A stretch of 63,999 nucleotides of DNA, counting the filler, from Stramenopiles sp. TOSAG23-3 (Eukaryota), in the NCBI GenBank assembly GCA_900128585.1. It is 3 parts of 3 records of this genome, joined end to end, with 100 filler letters (N's around TTAATTAATTAA, not from the genome) between each part and the next. Parts side by side here need not be neighbours in the genome. Positions count along the whole stretch, not along the records: positions 43,086 to 63,999 come from LT642365.1; 2 more parts are not named here. One strand, 5' to 3'. Positions 17,381 through 63,843 of the stretch are shown piece after piece. The notes beneath the pieces are model-generated. The model was not told where the DNA came from, searched no databases, and was given only the letters and a program-made list of their open reading frames with translations. The position numbers and the translations under genes are program-made. Each line of letters opens with the position of its first letter. Position 1 is the stretch's first letter.

Positions 17381-18582
17381 CTAGTTTTCTGTTGTACTGT
17401 TTTTTTCCATATTGATTACCACTCTTCCACCCGGGTGGTGCGACATGACGCGTTTTAATGCCTTGCGTATCGGTTCTTCCGAAAAGGGGACCTCTTCCGC
17501 CACGAAAGCACGTGCACCATCTTTGCGCGACGCGTCCCACATGTCTTGTTTAAGTGGAGGGTAGGATCCAATCATGACATACTTATACGACGAGCAACAT
17601 CCGCAAAGAGATTTACCAAGATGAAAACAAACTGCATTGAACATCTCGCCACCGGTCAGTTTTTTTTCACTGCTCATGTATATTGTGGGCCCCACGACGG
17701 TGACAAACAAGCCGCCCTTGCTGAGCAACGGGACTGCTTGCCCTTGTACCTCCTTGCCACCGACGTAGTCGAAGACGACTTGGAACTTCTCCTTCTCGGC
17801 CAGCTGTTCGCCAAAAGACTTTTGGGTGTAGTCGATAACTTCGTTTGCCCCCATCTTTGTCGCCGCCTCGGCATTCTTCCCGCTGCAAACAGCGGTGACA
17901 TGGCCTTTGTATTTGCGCAACAATTGGAGCATCAACTGTATAGGTGTTAGAGTATTAAACGTTAGAGAGAGCCGGAGAGGTTTAACAAATCGAGAAAACA
18001 GAAATTACTTACCGAACCCAGAGCACCAGATGCACCAATTACGAGGCACCGGAATCCACCAGCAACTAAAGGCCTGGTGGCACTTTTGATCGCGTGAAAG
18101 TTTACGAAAGCTCCCATGGCCATAGCGGCCGCGTCAACGAAAGAGATGCTGTCGTCTCCGATTAAACAAACGTCGCTTTCAGGGATAACCGTTCGTTCCG
18201 CCCAAGTTCCTTCCGCAGTATTAGGCGTTAGCAGATTGATGAACCCACATACACGATCCCCTACTTTCAGTTTCTTACAGTCTGGACCACATTCCAAAAC
18301 GACGCCAGCAAAGTCCTGGCCCCCAACCACGGGCTGGGCAACCGTCGGTTTGCGAGTGTGGTATCCCATGCCCCCGCACGCAGTATCTTGCAACAACGGA
18401 CAGTCGTCAACATTGATCGACGCAGCCTTAATGCCGACAATCACTTGGTTCTTTGTCGGTGCCCCTGGCGCTGCGATCGGTCCAAATTTAATTTTTTCGT
18501 ATACAGTCCCAGGCTCGCACCATTCCGTAATGTGTGCGGCCAACATTGTCTTACCGTCCTCCTGCGCGATCACTTTTGCCAT
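17381..18582 (-). CDS. MDR-family NAD(P)-dependent quinone oxidoreductase/alcohol dehydrogenase-like protein; 2 exons (18582-18013, 17935-17381)
   Basis: VGIKAASIN, GQDFAGVVLECG..KLKVGDRVCG, LVIGASGALG, GANEVIDY, GRVVI. The two provided ORFs join in frame across a 77-nt intron. Confidence 0.9.
17936..18012 (-). other. Spliceosomal intron (77 nt)
   Basis: The minus strand reads GTAAGT...CTCTAAC...ATACAG. Removing it gives the in-frame join ALGS|LMLQLL. Confidence 0.9.
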
Positions 18583-57176: not shown

Positions 57177-58676
57177 ATGCGTACTGCAGTCGCAAGAATT
57201 TTCGCGTTTCAAAACTCTAGAATTGGAGCACCTTCGGTTCGAACTGCGAATAGGGTCCTTATGTCAACCGTTAGTGTTATTGGTACTCAGCTCGAATGTG
57301 CTGGGTGTGGACATATAGAGGATGGGCTCGCGAATATTTTGTTTAAATGCCCGAATAGCGAGAGCAGCCCTGAGTGCGACCACGTGTTGGCACCCAAAAC
57401 CCCTGGAAAGGACTGTACTGCAACTTTGCAGAACGGGTGCACGTTCCCTGCAGAGGAGATCAACGAAATACCCTTCCTGCGGTACCGTGCTTTGCTATAC
57501 CCTTACCGCATTGCAATCGCAAAGGGGATGTCGGATGAAGTGTACGTGAACATTATCCAGGACTTGAACAACGAGCTAGTCGCCGTTGGTGGCACCGGCT
57601 TTACCGAAACGCCGCTGCTGTGGAACAACGAGCTGAACAGTTTCGTAAAAAATGAGACTCTCAATGTGGCCCAGTCCCACAAAGCCCGTCACCTGTTTAA
57701 CCTGATGTCCTATTTGCTTGTCATGTCTTATGGGGAACAGGGTGTGGGGGGCGGGTTGCGCAATAGACGGTTGGCCGTAGCCAGCTGTGGCAATGCTGGC
57801 TTGGCGGCGGCGACCGTTGCCGCCGCTGCAAAATGGCCCATTGACGTTTGCATCCCCCCAGATGCCGAGCCCGCCGTCGTTGAACAGCTCCATCATTTGG
57901 GAGCTAGCGTGCACATTTGTCGCCGTGATGCAGATTTTGTCGAGACTAGCCTTGGCAAAATATCGTCAAAGGGCGAGGCCGACCCCACGCTTGCAGTATT
58001 TAAGAATTTAGTAAAAGACCATGGAAGCATCCCTTTCAGTGTCCAAGGCTCCGAATGTGGGTTAGGGGTCGAGGGATCCCAGACAATTGCATGGGAGGTG
58101 CTGGAAGCAATGCAGCGGGACTTTCATGATTCCAAGTCGCCCGTGGAAAACTCTACGATAGAGAACGTTTTCATCCAAGTGGGCGGGGGGGCTCTGGGCT
58201 CTGGGATGATTCAGGGGTTCCAGCGTGCGTTGGATGGGGAGCTAGAACAAGTGAATCCCACCCTTGGGTCGAATGTAATCAGGTCGTTGCCGAAACTCTT
58301 TTGTATTCAGCCGGTAGGGTGCGGGCCGTTGAAGCGAGCACTTGACGAAATGAAAAAGAACGACATTACCAACGGCAAAACGGCAGCAAAAGACAGGGCA
58401 ACGTACATGTACCCCTGGGAAAATCCTCACTCCATAGCGCATGGTATTTTGGACGATGAAACCTACGATTGGTTGTCCTTGGTGGACGGAATGATTTCGA
58501 CGGAGGGGGGGGCTTTGCTTGTGGACGATGACAGTATTTGTGAGGCAAAGAAATTCGCTGAGGAACAGTTCGGTTTGAACCCTTGCCATACTGGTTCGGC
58601 TGGGTTGGCGGGTTTGATGAAGAACCGAAAGGAGGGGGTCAGTTTGGTAGTATTAAGTGGCCTTGATCGATCGTAA
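57177..58676 (+). CDS. Threonine-synthase-like PLP-dependent enzyme (fold type II) with presequence
   Basis: N-terminal CAGC...CPN...DH putative Zn site; TPLLW; PLP-lysine motif KNETLNVAQSHKARH; ASCGNAG; QVGGGALGSG; GSAGLAG; VLSG. The ATG at 57177 starts an Arg/Ser/Ala-rich leader with no acidic residues. Confidence 0.8.
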   Translation: MRTAVARIFAFQNSRIGAPSVRTANRVLMSTVSVIGTQLECAGCGHIEDGLANILFKCPNSESSPECDHVLAPKTPGKDCTATLQNGCTFPAEEINEIPFLRYRALLYPYRIAIAKGMSDEVYVNIIQDLNNELVAVGGTGFTETPLLWNNELNSFVKNETLNVAQSHKARHLFNLMSYLLVMSYGEQGVGGGLRNRRLAVASCGNAGLAAATVAAAAKWPIDVCIPPDAEPAVVEQLHHLGASVHICRRDADFVETSLGKISSKGEADPTLAVFKNLVKDHGSIPFSVQGSECGLGVEGSQTIAWEVLEAMQRDFHDSKSPVENSTIENVFIQVGGGALGSGMIQGFQRALDGELEQVNPTLGSNVIRSLPKLFCIQPVGCGPLKRALDEMKKNDITNGKTAAKDRATYMYPWENPHSIAHGILDDETYDWLSLVDGMISTEGGALLVDDDSICEAKKFAEEQFGLNPCHTGSAGLAGLMKNRKEGVSLVVLSGLDRS

Positions 58677-59976
58677 CGCATCGCTAGCTTTTTAAAAGTT
58701 TATAATTAATACGCTGTAGCATGTAAATACAATTAAGGAGATTTAGGAATAATAGTTTTATCCTTTTCCGCAGTATTGAGTATTGTGCACATTACGGAGA
58801 AAGGTGGGGCAAGGCCACAGTAAGAGTATGTAATAAGTACGGTACCAATAAGGCCGGTGTAATAAATAGAAAGAAGGGACACTGTCCTTATTATACTGTA
58901 AATTTTATATCCATCAAGGGCCAAAAAAATAGAAGAATAATAATAAAATAATAATAATACAGTATATAATACAACAAAAACAAAATATTGAAGAAGAACA
59001 ATAACCACGAACGGGTGGTGCTGGTGCCATGTAAACTGTAAACCATAAAAAAAAGATTCATTTTTTCTGCTGATGGAAGCCAAACGTAAGGTATTGTATA
59101 CATTATTACGTATATATATATAGATAGGGAGAGGAAGTCTATATGCTGTGTGTATATTTATGGAGAAATACGTGTCGTTTCGCGAATAAAGTGCATGCGC
59201 CTTAATAATTGTGGCTTATTTCGCCCACGGGTTCAATTTTTCAATTTTCGTTCTTTACCCCTTTCCTTCCCCTATTTTTATCCCAGTTAAAATGATGCTG
59301 AATTATAAATAAGGTTTAAATAAGATTAAAACTAGTTTCTTCTCTCTTCATTATACAACATATCCTTAATAAAGAAAGAGAAGCTTATCGAAAACAATTG
59401 AATCCTTTTTGAGTTTATTTCAGTTCTATTTATATGTATGCACGTCAGATACACCTTCCTTATTAAAATAGATAGGGTCAATACTCCTAGTGTACTTTAA
59501 TGGTGGTAGTCTAATGATGAACGGATGGGTGGTGGATTTTGTGGTTGTTGTGTTCGATCAGTGTTCGTTAATTTATTAAAATAATATACAAAACAGCATG
59601 AAAGTACCCTGGTACGGTAGTGTTATTATTTATATATAGCTAGATAGGAGGAGGGGGGCTACCACCACCAAATAATAATAAAATTAAAAAAAAATAAAAA
59701 AAATTTTTTTTTAAATAATAATAATAAAATTATACAACACAACAGTACCGGAGTGGAACCCGTACCTTGTAGTAGAAATAATAATGCTTCTGCTTTTTTT
59801 CCCTTTTTTTCCACCATTTACTTTGTGAATGTTATAATGGTATATCTAAACAAAATTTACATGTTTCACCTGGACAGCGAGGAGAAATTGTCTTTTTTAA
59901 GAAATACATACCAATCCTAAGTACCAAAAAGTTCAAACTCACAAATACTTACCAGCAACAACTTTCCGCACGAGGT

Positions 59977-62565
59977 ATGAACAGTTTCCTTCAAAAGGCA
60001 TGTCGAGCGTCGGGAAAGAAGGGCCGTTTGGGTAGCATCGCGCGTATCCCCAGAACGGGGTCCTCGGGCGCGTCCATTCGGTTTACCTCTGTGTCAAATG
60101 CTGCAAGATCAATCGGTCAGCTTGAGCCGGTGTCCTACCTCGAAACAACCTTCTCGCTGGAAGAACTGCAGAACACTAAATATACGGGCTATGACGTGTG
60201 CGACAGCAGCCCAATTTGCCACGACGTAGGAAATACCCCATTGGTGCACTTGGAAGACGAAATATATGCCAAACTAGAAGGGCACAATCCAGGGGGAAGC
60301 TTGAAGGACCGAACCATTTCGTCCATACTGCTCCACATGTTTGAAGAAAAAAAGTTGCGGCCGTCTGGGGAGACCATTTGCCTCGTTACGTCAGGCAGTG
60401 CAGGTGTCTCGCTCCGAAAGGTTCAGCAGGACTTGACGAAACTTGGATTGCTTGACTTCAACGTCGTCGTAGTAATACCAAAAGCGTACTGCAGCAAGAC
60501 TGCCCCGAGCGCATTGGCATCGAAAGTGCCGGGCAGTATTTTTGAGGACGTGGGCGGGCGACAGGCGCAAGTTGCCGTCGAGGACGACAATAAGCCTCGG
60601 AACCGCTTTGACCTGATATTTGCGGACGGTGTGTTCATAGACGTCTTGGCAGAGTACGAAGCCCACGCCAAGGAGTTGGGCTGGAGCATGTTGGAACAGC
60701 ACTACGATGCAAACTCGATGAAGGGTCACCGCAGCACTGCGAAAGAGATCATGATGCAGTGCCCAGATGTGACTGACATCATCGTTTCGACCGGAACAGG
60801 GGCCACGGCGGCCGGCCTTCGAAATTTCATGCCTGACCACGTCCGAGTCCACTCGCGCCCAGCAGAGTCTGGGACGATCGATGGACTCACGAACGTGCAA
60901 CGCTACAACAATTTTTGTGATTCCTCCCGTCTGGTAGGATATAATGACTGTGTCTTTGACAAAGCGCATGCGGAGGACGCTCAGAAAGACTTGGAGGAGA
61001 AAGGAATCGTTGCTGGACCAAGCAGTGGCGCTACCTTGTGGTTGGCCCGCCAGCTTTCGCGTGAAAGAGTGGAGGAAAAAAGAAAATTTTTGGTCATTTG
61101 TGCGGACGGTAAACTTGAGGAAACGTCAAAATCCAGCAACGGGCCGCAGCACGCCCGTAGGTCTCAAGGCCTTTTGAGCAGCTGTGGACTCCAAAATCGG
61201 TCGCATGCAAGAATGTACTCTACTTCCCGAGCCGCATTTAGTGAACCGAGCGTCCCAGTGAAAGATTATATAGTAGTAGGTGGTGGCCCCGTCGGAGCCT
61301 CGACGGCATGGTTTCTGTCCGAAAAGGAAGTAGAAAACGAAAAGTCTATTTTGCTTATTCACGACCCCAAGAACAAGGGTGCGCACGAGGACTGGAGCCG
61401 CCTTGCGCGACTGTCTTTTGATGGCCCCATCGAAGAGATGGAGTTGTCGCGGCATGCTGTAGAATTGTTAGACTTGCTTGACGAAGTGCAGAGCATGAAT
61501 AGTGGTGCGCCAATCGTGCCGTTGCGGCCTGGAATGTTGTTTTTGGCCTCCCCTGGAACCAACATGGCTCGAGTGTGCGCGCACGGCGAGTCGTACGGGG
61601 ACAAATCGTTTGTCCCCGTAGACCCGAAAGATTTGGAGAGCTTGTTCCCTGGAAATAAATTTAGCCTTCCCCCAGATACCCTCTGCTGGACCCATCCGAC
61701 TGGGCTGTGCGTGTCTCCGTTGGAATTGGCCTCTGCAGCAAGAAAAACTGCTGAGGCGTATGGTGCGGAAATCATTGAAGGGCGTGCAACTATCGATGCG
61801 CTTCCTAGGTCCGAAGACAAAGTCAGGGTCACACTAGAGGATGGACGGGTCTTTGACACTCCAAAATGTTTCCTGTTCGCGGGAGCCCAAAACAAGACGA
61901 TTTTGAAGAATGCCATAGAGCGGGATCCCGCAGCAAATGCGGTCCTGGGCATACCAGAGTTCGACGAGACGTACATCACCGCGATCTCCACCATTCGATA
62001 CAAGCATGTGAATCACCCTGCCAACCCAGCGCCTGGGTCTGGGCATGTCCCCACTCCGATAACTCTTGGGCAATTGGAAATTCCCGGTTTGATTGATTTT
62101 CAGGCTAACTTTAGTATAGTAGCCGAAGAGTACGGCGATGTCTTGAAGACGCGTCTTTCTGGGTCAATCGGTAGCGAAACGATAGAGTCTGTTGCAGACA
62201 TGCACAACATTGGAGATGATCAAAATGCTGAAATGGCAGAGACATACCAAAACTTTTTTGGGAACCTTTTTCCGTTTTTGGACACGGAAGAACCACTCGA
62301 CTTCAACCGTTGCGTAACGTACAGAAACCACAACCCGAATTTTAGTGGCACGAGTATTCTTGAAAAGAAAGTCGGCGGCGCGTCCATTTTGACCACACCT
62401 GGTTGCTTTGGTGTAGGGGTTAAGTTTGGGCCGGCGCTCGGAGAAGCTGCCACTGCGCACGTGTTAAATAATGAAGTTCAAACGGGGATGAATGTGTTTC
62501 AATCAGGGTCGAAAGAATTGGAAACTGCAGACGAAGATGCAGACCGTGTTGAACGGGCCTGGTGA
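59977..62565 (+). CDS. Fusion of a cysteine-synthase-like PLP enzyme and a sarcosine-oxidase/DAO-family FAD oxidoreductase
   Basis: N-half: VGNTPLV, YAKLEGHNPGGSLKDR, TSGSAG, STGTGAT, AGPSSGA, ICADG. C-half: DYIVVGGGPVGASTAWFLS (FAD Rossmann fold), HEDWSRLAR, GVGVKFGPALGE. One uninterrupted 862-aa ORF. Confidence 0.85.
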   Translation: MNSFLQKACRASGKKGRLGSIARIPRTGSSGASIRFTSVSNAARSIGQLEPVSYLETTFSLEELQNTKYTGYDVCDSSPICHDVGNTPLVHLEDEIYAKLEGHNPGGSLKDRTISSILLHMFEEKKLRPSGETICLVTSGSAGVSLRKVQQDLTKLGLLDFNVVVVIPKAYCSKTAPSALASKVPGSIFEDVGGRQAQVAVEDDNKPRNRFDLIFADGVFIDVLAEYEAHAKELGWSMLEQHYDANSMKGHRSTAKEIMMQCPDVTDIIVSTGTGATAAGLRNFMPDHVRVHSRPAESGTIDGLTNVQRYNNFCDSSRLVGYNDCVFDKAHAEDAQKDLEEKGIVAGPSSGATLWLARQLSRERVEEKRKFLVICADGKLEETSKSSNGPQHARRSQGLLSSCGLQNRSHARMYSTSRAAFSEPSVPVKDYIVVGGGPVGASTAWFLSEKEVENEKSILLIHDPKNKGAHEDWSRLARLSFDGPIEEMELSRHAVELLDLLDEVQSMNSGAPIVPLRPGMLFLASPGTNMARVCAHGESYGDKSFVPVDPKDLESLFPGNKFSLPPDTLCWTHPTGLCVSPLELASAARKTAEAYGAEIIEGRATIDALPRSEDKVRVTLEDGRVFDTPKCFLFAGAQNKTILKNAIERDPAANAVLGIPEFDETYITAISTIRYKHVNHPANPAPGSGHVPTPITLGQLEIPGLIDFQANFSIVAEEYGDVLKTRLSGSIGSETIESVADMHNIGDDQNAEMAETYQNFFGNLFPFLDTEEPLDFNRCVTYRNHNPNFSGTSILEKKVGGASILTTPGCFGVGVKFGPALGEAATAHVLNNEVQTGMNVFQSGSKELETADEDADRVERAW

Positions 62566-62752
62566 TGAAGAAAAAGCGACAGGAAAGGGAGATACAAGAA
62601 GTAAGAATTCTTTTTTAAGAATTCCTAAATAACTTATTTATGTTTTTTAAAATTGGAAATTAGGAATACATGCCTATTAAACTTGTTTCCAAAGAAGTAA
62701 ATGTATGACATTAGGAGAAATTTGGCTTTTCTTTTTTCCTCTTTTTGCCAGT

Positions 62753-63283
62753 TCACTCTTTCAAACGAACAATGCATTCAACGGTGACTGCCGCTGGCAA
62801 CGACCCTGCACCTGTGCAAGTGCGTGCGTGCCTTCCTCTATCGCCGAGGCATTCTACGAGCATGTCCGATGCACCGTTAATTACCTTTCCGTGCCCAATA
62901 AAGTCCGGAGTCCCATTGACAATTCCGACTACTTTTACCATTTGTTCGACCTTGTCTAAGTCACCGTCACAATAGTGAGAAATCGTAGAAAGCAAACGAA
63001 GTGCGGCCTGACCCGCTAGTTTCTCAGCTTCTTCTGGAGTAACAGCAGCGTCAGCTCCCTCGCCAACTTTGCCGCGCACTGTTTGTGCATTTTCATCCTG
63101 TCCTACGTGATCTCCAATATACAACAAGTTTCCATGTCTTTGCCCTTTAACGTAGGACCAGACCGCATCCTGGTACTCTGGCAATACAATCCCCTTCAGT
63201 TTCATTAGCTTTTCTGTGTGAACCAGACGCCTGGAAGAGCCAGAGAGCAGCTTCGCGCCTACCTTGAGACTGCGTGTAAGCAT
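62753..63283 (-). CDS. Rid/YjgF/UK114-family protein (long Atu1372-like subtype) with presequence
   Basis: SYVKGQRHGNLLYIG, GKVG, GDLDKVEQMVKVVGIVN, VINGASD...GRHARTCTGAGSLP. Leader MLTRSLKVGAKLLSGSSRRLVH. Confidence 0.9.
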   Translation of the reverse strand: MLTRSLKVGAKLLSGSSRRLVHTEKLMKLKGIVLPEYQDAVWSYVKGQRHGNLLYIGDHVGQDENAQTVRGKVGEGADAAVTPEEAEKLAGQAALRLLSTISHYCDGDLDKVEQMVKVVGIVNGTPDFIGHGKVINGASDMLVECLGDRGRHARTCTGAGSLPAAVTVECIVRLKE

Positions 63284-63843
63284 TTTAAACGATTGACAAT
63301 TCGGATGGTTCGTGGCACAATTAGTTGTGTTTTATAAGTCTTCCCTTTTGGTCGCTTGTTCTTCTTTTGCTAAAACAAACAATTGGGCATGAACAGTTGT
63401 AGGGCGAAAGGGTTGGGCCGATCGATACTATTTAACAATAATACGCTAACAATCATGATCTAAAATTTCGCAATTATTTTTATTATTATTATTATTAGTC
63501 TATATTTTAATAATAATAATAAAAAATAATAATAATATTATTATACCAAGTAATAATCATATTCTCTGCTGCTGTGTACATATTATTTTTATTTCTATAA
63601 TAATATATTAATTATTTTTTTTTTTTAATTATTACTGTACTAGACCTACTGTATTATTTTTTTTTATTTATAAAATAATAAGAAGAAGAAGAAGAAGAAG
63701 AAGAACGAATTTTTTTGTTCCTAATTGTTTAACCCTAATTATAACCATATAAATATTCCCCCCTTCTTCTAGCAACCACAAATTCGTTTAGTTCGAAGAA
63801 AAAATAATTAAATACCAATACAGCATTGTATAAATAACATTGA

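Follow-up and report, generated by a model that had tools for sequence, protein, structure and literature searches.

A fused PLP enzyme and flavin oxidase in one reading frame

We analysed a 63,999-nucleotide stretch of DNA (filler included) from Stramenopiles sp. TOSAG23-3 (assembly GCA_900128585.1), hereafter the window, and focused on P0001, a gene in which a pyridoxal phosphate (PLP) enzyme is joined to a flavin adenine dinucleotide (FAD)-dependent oxidase by a linker that resembles a mitochondrial presequence. The window is nuclear DNA of a eukaryote with a compact, intron-poor genome, and codes for tubulin, TTC21/IFT-like TPR, MyTH4 and EF-hand proteins. The protein identical to P0001 over its 862 aa is present in public collections (P0002). 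The gene has the following features, listed with the evidence for each.

59977..62565 (+): P0001, one intron-less open reading frame (ORF) for PLP enzyme, linker and FAD oxidase, 862 aa plus stop (ORF list, translation)
59977..60099 (+): putative N-terminal matrix-targeting presequence, aa 1-41 (composition, charge, helical moment, predicted local distance difference test score (pLDDT) below 50)
60223..61101 (+): fold-type II PLP domain (PF00291), CysK/CysM/SbnA-like, aa 83-375 (Pfam PALP, 81.1 bits, E 1.1e-22)
61123..61242 (+): interdomain linker, aa 383-422, 40 aa, an internal presequence-like segment (composition, charge, pLDDT)
61210..61221 (+): R412-M413-Y414-S415, predicted site of the mitochondrial processing peptidase (MPP; Arg at -2, cleavage after M413), followed by predicted removal of Y414 by Icp55 (motif conservation)
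61264..62562 (+): FAD-dependent amine oxidase domain (PF01266), MSOX/MTOX/NikD-like, aa 430-862 (Pfam DAO, 58.2 bits)

The single ORF holds two independently folding modules, as indicated by the two Pfam domains and by two well-folded AlphaFold2 blocks that are split by a segment with pLDDT below 50. The model (49-sequence alignment) has a mean pLDDT of 85.4 and a predicted template modelling score of 0.56; both domains lie mostly above 90, and values below 50 are confined to aa 1-41 and 384-421. These two signal-like segments are thus predicted to be the sole disordered parts of the protein, and we read the template modelling score as suggesting that the two domains have no fixed orientation relative to each other.

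The PLP domain, hereafter PALP, scored below the NCBIfam cut-offs for cysKM (80 versus 344 bits), cysK (69.8 versus 350.95) and cysM (64.4 versus 394.2), and its sequence matches in the PDB were cysteine synthases, CBS and SbnA. By these scores we place it in the PF00291 superfamily only, outside the canonical CysK and CysM enzymes. The NPGGS-x-KDR motif is conserved in the PALP consensus, and its lysine presumably binds PLP. For the oxidase, the top Foldseek matches were MTOX (2uzz), NikD (2q6u) and MSOX, with probability 1.0, TM (target) scores of 0.75-0.79 and 15-18% identity, which assigns the modelled domain to the MSOX/MTOX/NikD fold. Against the NCBIfam solA equivalog it reached 45.6 bits, below the cut-off of 257.

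Marine metatranscriptome RNA contigs span 60011..62598, and contigs from two RNA studies bridge the linker itself: X1 record 3 (61082-61690) and X2 record 7 (60946-61295). No joints, indels or loose ends were reported in the contigs over the gene (four runs), a type of evidence that is blind to transcript starts and to rare isoforms. The GC content of the linker (0.542) is close to that of coding sequence (about 0.51-0.53) and far from that of the flanking intergenic DNA (0.28-0.32). Two artefacts were considered and rejected. False merging of two genes in the gene model is contradicted by the frame, which is open throughout, and by the RNA contigs across the linker; the labelling of two fused relatives, P0010 and P0022, as complete ORFs in transcriptome-derived sources also counts against it. 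Against a retained intron at the linker stands the absence of joints in the RNA contigs together with the coding-like GC content. The AT-rich intergenic DNA on either side of the gene contains low-complexity tracts (long A/T, (AAT)n/(GAA)n) at 59640-59730 and 63470-63700.

The linker resembles a presequence and carries a processing motif

Translated in the frame of the ORF, 61117..61260 reads EETSKSSNGPQHARRSQGLLSSCGLQNRSHARMYSTSRAAFSEPSVPV. The linker contains no Asp or Glu, five Arg, one Lys and 12 Ser/Thr, giving a net charge of +6 over 40 aa. The translation and the composition count bear out the features for which the original prediction had singled out this segment, namely its richness in Arg and Ser, its lack of acidic residues and the R-M-Y-S-T-S sequence just before the FAD domain. 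The R412-M413-Y414-S415 motif is located 23 residues ahead of GGGPVG, whose first residue is aa 435.

The N-terminus of the whole protein is similar in character. Its first 49 aa are free of Asp and Glu, aa 1-45 have a net charge of +9, and the highest 18-aa helical moment is 0.50, compared with a protein-wide 95th percentile of 0.41; no hydrophobic signal-peptide core was visible by eye. By these composition measures we regard the N-terminus as a putative presequence. The helical moment of the linker peaks at 0.35, below the value at the N-terminus, and in this respect the linker resembles a cleavage site more than a strong targeting helix.

For published processing systems, we relied on excerpts of the cited papers. 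According to these, processing follows R-X-(F/Y/I/L) and then (S/A)(S/T), with the -3R motif arising from an MPP cut at -2R and subsequent trimming by ICP55 (PMC8847149). From this source and PMC8734313, we defined a strict motif, R-x-[FYL]-[SA], for the MPP/Icp55 pattern. A chance test was made on 34 ORFs of at least 150 aa in the window, including some spurious antisense ORFs. Among 15,422 40-aa windows, 317 were acid-free and 62 of these had at least five Arg; a single one, the linker, also contained R.[FYL][SA]. Outside linkers and presequences, 38 proteins of the family contain this pattern 36 times in 26,134 positions (density 0.0014).

The motif persists in linkers that have otherwise diverged

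Searching 5.8 billion proteins yielded 23 further proteins with the PALP-then-DAO order, which together with P0001 form a fused set of 24. These relatives are 43-69% identical to the query (BLASTP) and are labelled with sources such as Triparma, MMETSP and EukProt transcriptomes. Six are triple fusions with an extra N-terminal alpha/beta-hydrolase module (PF00561) that is "homoserine O-acetyltransferase-like".

The strict motif is present in the linkers of 20 of the 24 fused proteins, its last copy always lying 15-26 residues ahead of GGGPVG, and three of the other four have near-misses within the same range of distances (RNYT, RSFC and RAMS). Conservation of R-x-Y-S among orthologues had been set beforehand as a check, and the idea of an internal processing site survived it. 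At least seven fused proteins have two or three copies in tandem, as in P0008 (RRFASTSTLGRRNFSSSPSRNFSS). Outside the motif, linker sequences cannot be aligned, and linker length spans 42-124 aa among the 23 proteins with a delimited linker (in P0015 the pattern did not find the PALP end). When each linker was shuffled with its composition preserved, the motif arose with P of 0.05-0.48, so an R/S-rich composition alone is insufficient to explain 20 of 24. What argues most for constraint is that the motif stays fixed between freely varying flanks, and such constraint favours internal cleavage by MPP.

Stand-alone relatives point to the origin of the linker

We found 14 oxidase-only proteins of 474-555 aa that are 45-66% identical over the oxidase half. 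Each opens with Met and then an extension, rich in R/S/A and nearly without acidic residues, across the segment equivalent to the linker, and in seven of them the strict motif ends this extension at the same distance from G[GA]GPVG. The 77-aa presequence of one stand-alone oxidase, P0030, aligns with the linker of the fused protein P0008 (MAFFT), and these two proteins are sisters with a support of 98 in a tree of the oxidase module (a quick maximum-likelihood tree with Shimodaira–Hasegawa-like approximate likelihood ratio test (SH-aLRT) support). Sister lineages thus have, as an N-terminal presequence, the segment that lies internally in P0001. This positional homology to the presequences of stand-alone oxidases argues that the linker is the retained presequence of a once-independent gene, as had been suggested at the outset.

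Fused and stand-alone forms interleave on the tree. Parsimony gives six changes, and at least three fused/split changes are forced by branches with SH-aLRT of at least 95. A second search returned many PALP-only proteins of about 370-430 aa. Some are truncated fused genes, such as P0064, which equals the fused P0015 up to its cut end. Genuine PALP-only genes also exist: in contig L001, ...NCYTNFRRS is closed by a TAA stop with about 100 nt beyond it, and contig L002 has no oxidase ORF within 373 nt past its stop. The interleaving of fused and split states, together with real stops in PALP-only genes, indicates that the two modules function as separate polypeptides in nature.

MAFFT places the C-termini of five stand-alone PALPs beside the first RRFAS of P0008, and BLASTP of P0008 against the stand-alone PALP P0053 gave an alignment that stops short of the last ~30 residues. 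On the MAFFT placement alone, we tentatively suggest that the C-terminus of split PALPs corresponds to the first cleavage motif in a fused relative. Stand-alone PALPs keep a C-terminal tail of 60-70 aa (..NPP.xGYPF....NCYTNFRRS, stop; L001 1150-1412, L002 236-1336, P0050, P0052-54 and P0058), and this conserved tail appears to serve a distinct function. The PALP frame of L002 is split near its 5' end into overlapping ORFs at 30-239 and 236-1336, which could reflect an unspliced intron or an assembly error.

Compositions of the junctions, presequences and mature domain were compared as follows; the linker and stand-alone segments are the 35 aa that end 15 aa ahead of GGGPVG.

Linkers of fused proteins (n=24): R 15.0%, D+E 2.6%, S+T 23.2%
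First 35 aa of fused proteins (n=11): R 13.5%, D+E 1.3%, S+T 20.3%
Stand-alone oxidase presequences (n=14): R 14.9%, D+E 0.9%, S+T 18.6%
Acetyltransferase(MetX)-PALP junction of triple fusions (n=6): R 6.2%, D+E 18.6%, S+T 11.9%
Mature oxidase domain (n=24): R 4.2%, D+E 14.8%, S+T 12.1%

The linkers match the N-terminal presequences of the family and differ from both the mature domains and the MetX-PALP junction. The acidic MetX-PALP junction serves as an internal control: by composition, the PALP-oxidase junction alone looks presequence-like among the junctions of this family.

A composite precursor as the preferred reading

With somewhat better than even confidence, we propose that P0001 is a composite mitochondrial precursor whose retained internal presequence is cut by MPP to release two enzymes. 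The basic N-terminal presequence (about aa 1-41) would direct import into the matrix. The linker would be the presequence of a once separate oxidase gene, which is still separate in other lineages. As the unfolded chain enters the matrix, MPP would read R412 at -2 and cut between M413 and Y414, after which Icp55 would take off the destabilising Y414. One product would be the CysK-like PLP enzyme with a basic C-terminal tail of roughly 30 aa; the other would be an MSOX-like flavoenzyme that starts at S415 (STSR...), about 20 residues ahead of the Rossmann strand. The sequence features and their conservation, the homology to presequences, the predicted disorder and the unbroken transcript are shown here; we infer the mitochondrial location, both proteolytic steps and any benefit, for example from equal dosage or from assembly of consecutive enzymes. 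A precedent is Arg5,6, in which MPP cleaves at R-S-Y within an internal mitochondrial targeting signal-like sequence (iMTS-L), an internal cleavage that depends on a strong N-terminal presequence (PMC8734313).

Several observations weigh against this proposal. The helical amphipathicity of the linker is moderate, its maximum lying under the protein-wide 95th percentile. The strict motif is missing in four of the 24 fused proteins, and in P0022 (...QQCAFSTS) neither -2 nor -3 is an Arg. The fused orthologues are related, so that the 20 occurrences are not 20 independent events. Among the stand-alone presequences, just half (7 of 14) have the strict motif, and the MPP rules of this lineage are thus not established. 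The MetX-PALP junction shows that the family also tolerates permanent fusion. Finally, RNA evidence in the form of contigs leaves room for a minor internal transcript. The supplements of a diatom N-terminome study (PMC3774753, seven files) contained no occurrence of GGGPVG, "cysteine synthase", "sarcosine oxidase" or "FAD dependent oxidoreductase", in a setting in which the expected mature N-terminal tryptic peptide is too short to detect.

The linker might instead be an uncleaved flexible tether, derived from a presequence and kept basic and acid-free as an iMTS-L for Tom70 binding and import of a long precursor, in a bifunctional enzyme of 95 kDa. The excerpts of PMC5881500 describe iMTS-Ls as common in mitochondrial proteins and as supporting import, the same family keeps a permanent acetyltransferase-PALP junction of non-presequence type, and the linker is less amphipathic than the N-terminus. 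We nevertheless judge a tether unlikely: an import helper needs basic amphipathic character, not R-x-[FY]-S-[ST] at a fixed distance from the next domain, yet nothing in the linker but this motif is conserved (in 20 of 24, often in duplicate), and it also ends genuine stand-alone presequences, where cutting is expected. That the linker is a neutral relic of fusion, its motif kept through shared ancestry only, would fit the phylogenetic relatedness of the fused proteins and the clearly presequence-derived linker. It becomes improbable given that flanks and length have diverged past alignment among proteins that are 47-69% identical while the motif and its spacing persist, that the motif has been duplicated in tandem in several lineages, and that the composition is still presequence-like throughout the 24 (D+E 2.6%).

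Two further explanations seem very improbable to us. The first concerns the in-frame ATG at 61213 (M413), from which, or from an internal promoter, a separate oxidase isoform might be made. Met occupies the x position of the motif in just 5 of the 24 fused proteins, M413 is the sole Met in aa 300-488, and a product starting there (MYSTSR...) would be without the whole basic segment. Contigs of the two RNA studies pass through the site with no pile-up of ends or loose ends reported, within the blindness of contigs to transcript starts, and the GC content of the linker is coding-like, not intergenic-like. This alternative start is the part of the original prediction that is not supported, whereas its presequence-like linker, conserved site and retained presequence found support. 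The other explanation takes the motif as a regulatory site of a non-mitochondrial bifunctional enzyme, recognized by a basophilic kinase or a 14-3-3-type protein. R-x-x-S is a basophilic kinase consensus, which R-M-Y-S and R-R-x-F-S formally match. We give this very little weight, as the motif is also found where the N-terminal extensions of stand-alone orthologues end, the full-length protein starts with a presequence-like stretch of its own, and the aromatic residue or Leu at -1 of the Ser is conserved, a feature specific to the MPP/Icp55 pattern in the excerpts of PMC8847149.

Neighbouring genes and a possible pathway

The fusion gene is flanked by two genes whose products also have basic N-termini.

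57177..58676 (+): ThrC-like PLP enzyme with a basic, acid-poor N-terminus (Pfam PALP, 109 bits)
62753..63283 (-): YjgF/RidA-like protein with a basic N-terminus, MLTRSLKVGAKLLSGSSRRLVH (Pfam YjgF_endoribonc, 39.1 bits)

The three adjacent genes (ThrC-like, PALP-oxidase fusion and RidA-like) thus all encode basic, acid-poor N-termini. The NCBIfam threonine-synthase-like matches of the ThrC-like neighbour are under their cut-offs, and a homologue of this module is joined to DAO and PALP in P0024, a predicted protein of another organism. The ThrC-like and RidA-like neighbours probably act in the same pathway as the fusion, and the three-gene cluster has the look of a eukaryotic mitochondrial pathway whose genes are physically grouped.

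Fusions of the PLP enzyme to acetyltransferase-like modules also occur. PALP relatives with an N-terminal MetX-like alpha/beta hydrolase (PF00561) are found among P0011-P0014, P0017, P0018 and P0192, and P0180 combines PALP with a C-terminal hexapeptide-repeat serine-acetyltransferase-like domain. These fusions hint at an O-acetylated hydroxy-amino acid as the substrate of the PLP enzyme. As a speculation, the modules and their neighbours might together form an uncharacterised mitochondrial pathway for an amino-acid derivative.

The reverse order, oxidase then PALP, is seen in P0041, P0173, P0174, P0175 and P0184 (658-729 aa, 35-39% identical). These Lys/Asn-rich proteins lack a presequence-like extension, beginning just about 10-35 residues ahead of GGGPVG, and could be relatives of the pair from bacteria.

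Beyond the processing of P0001 itself, we entertain a broader idea, which we hold as tentative and rather doubtful: that in this stramenopile enzyme family the presequence also serves as a reusable cut-here linker, so that mitochondrial genes could fuse and split almost neutrally and reversibly, and that the polyprotein belongs to a physically clustered, uncharacterised pathway. Once two targeted genes had fused, MPP would immediately resolve the resulting polyprotein, and a new stop or start codon at the linker would return two targeted genes. The expected traces would be the interleaved fused and split states (at least three changes), the tandem sites and the PALP ends placed by MAFFT beside the first site. 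The pathway could run from an acetyltransferase through PLP-dependent beta-replacement and MSOX-like oxidation of a secondary amine to RidA.

Elsewhere in the window, two adjacent ORFs, 17381-17932 (-) and 17962-18582 (-), encode the C-terminal (ADH_zinc_N) and the N-terminal (ADH_N) half, respectively, of a single zinc alcohol dehydrogenase. The gap of about 30 nt between them is probably due to a very short intron or a frameshift.

Comparison with known composite precursors

In the excerpts available to us, documented internal MPP processing of composite precursors is limited to a few fungal proteins and a single one from plants (PMC8734313, PMC8847149), and the parts of this literature that were covered contained no stramenopile or algal case and no such enzyme pair. 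Literature searches aimed at this fusion, at internal MPP processing in diatoms and stramenopiles, and at mitochondrial N-terminomics of diatoms likewise turned up nothing relevant. A link to the diatom CysK of beta-N-methylamino-L-alanine formation (PMC12184485) was considered and found unsupported: the excerpted text deals with a canonical CysK, and neither a fusion nor an oxidoreductase nor mitochondrial targeting comes up in it.

By enzyme analogy only, the pair is reminiscent of SbnA/SbnB and CysK/SAT, in which fold-type II PLP-dependent beta-replacement on an activated hydroxy-amino acid is followed by oxidation. It differs from SbnA/SbnB in that the second enzyme is a flavin amine oxidase instead of the NAD-dependent SbnB, and every equivalog cut-off is missed by far. 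The linker also resembles an iMTS-L, a presequence-like stretch within a mitochondrial precursor (Backes et al. 2018, PMC5881500). As described there, iMTS-Ls are generally uncleaved and need no R-x-[FY]-S, whereas the cleavage-type motif is the conserved element in the P0001 family.

The closest parallel is Arg5,6 of yeast and other fungi (N-acetylglutamate kinase/N-acetylglutamyl-phosphate reductase), in which two enzymes are made as one precursor with an N-terminal presequence and a presequence-like junction (PMC8734313). According to the same excerpts, the Arg5,6 modules are enzymes of consecutive pathway steps, a likeness that we presume for the CysK-like/MSOX-like pair, and the parallel extends to the Arg at -2, the aromatic residue at +1, the conservation of the site among fused orthologues and the predicted trimming by Icp55. 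P0001 differs in its CysK-like and MSOX-like enzymes, in its stramenopile host (from source labels) and in that cleavage is here predicted from sequence; moreover, fused and split states interchange in this family, and the split forms reveal the origin of the site as an N-terminal presequence. Mitochondrial fusion proteins whose junction bears an iMTS-L together with an MPP motif are likewise described, namely Atp25, S. pombe Rsm22-Cox11, Etp1 and rice RPS14-SDHB (PMC8734313, PMC8847149). Atp25 is cut more than once (PMC5063612, in the portion available), a counterpart to the tandem motifs that at least seven orthologues have here. Unlike those of P0001, the modules of these four proteins are, in the sources at hand, functionally unrelated or assembly factors.

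In annotation, it should not be taken for granted that the 862-aa model acts as one bifunctional protein of 95 kDa. The family is unusually informative: with fused, split, triple-fused and reverse-order forms together, it shows that the internal site is a former N-terminal presequence, and lets the ease of fusion and separation of mitochondrial genes be tested. The features of Arg5,6- and Atp25-type precursors are found together here, namely two modules, a presequence-like junction, an MPP consensus at that junction and conservation of the site among fused orthologues. On this sequence evidence, P0001 likely works as do Arg5,6, Atp25, Rsm22-Cox11, Etp1 and rice RPS14-SDHB, and a stramenopile case with a different enzyme pair would extend the range of MPP "tailor" activity.

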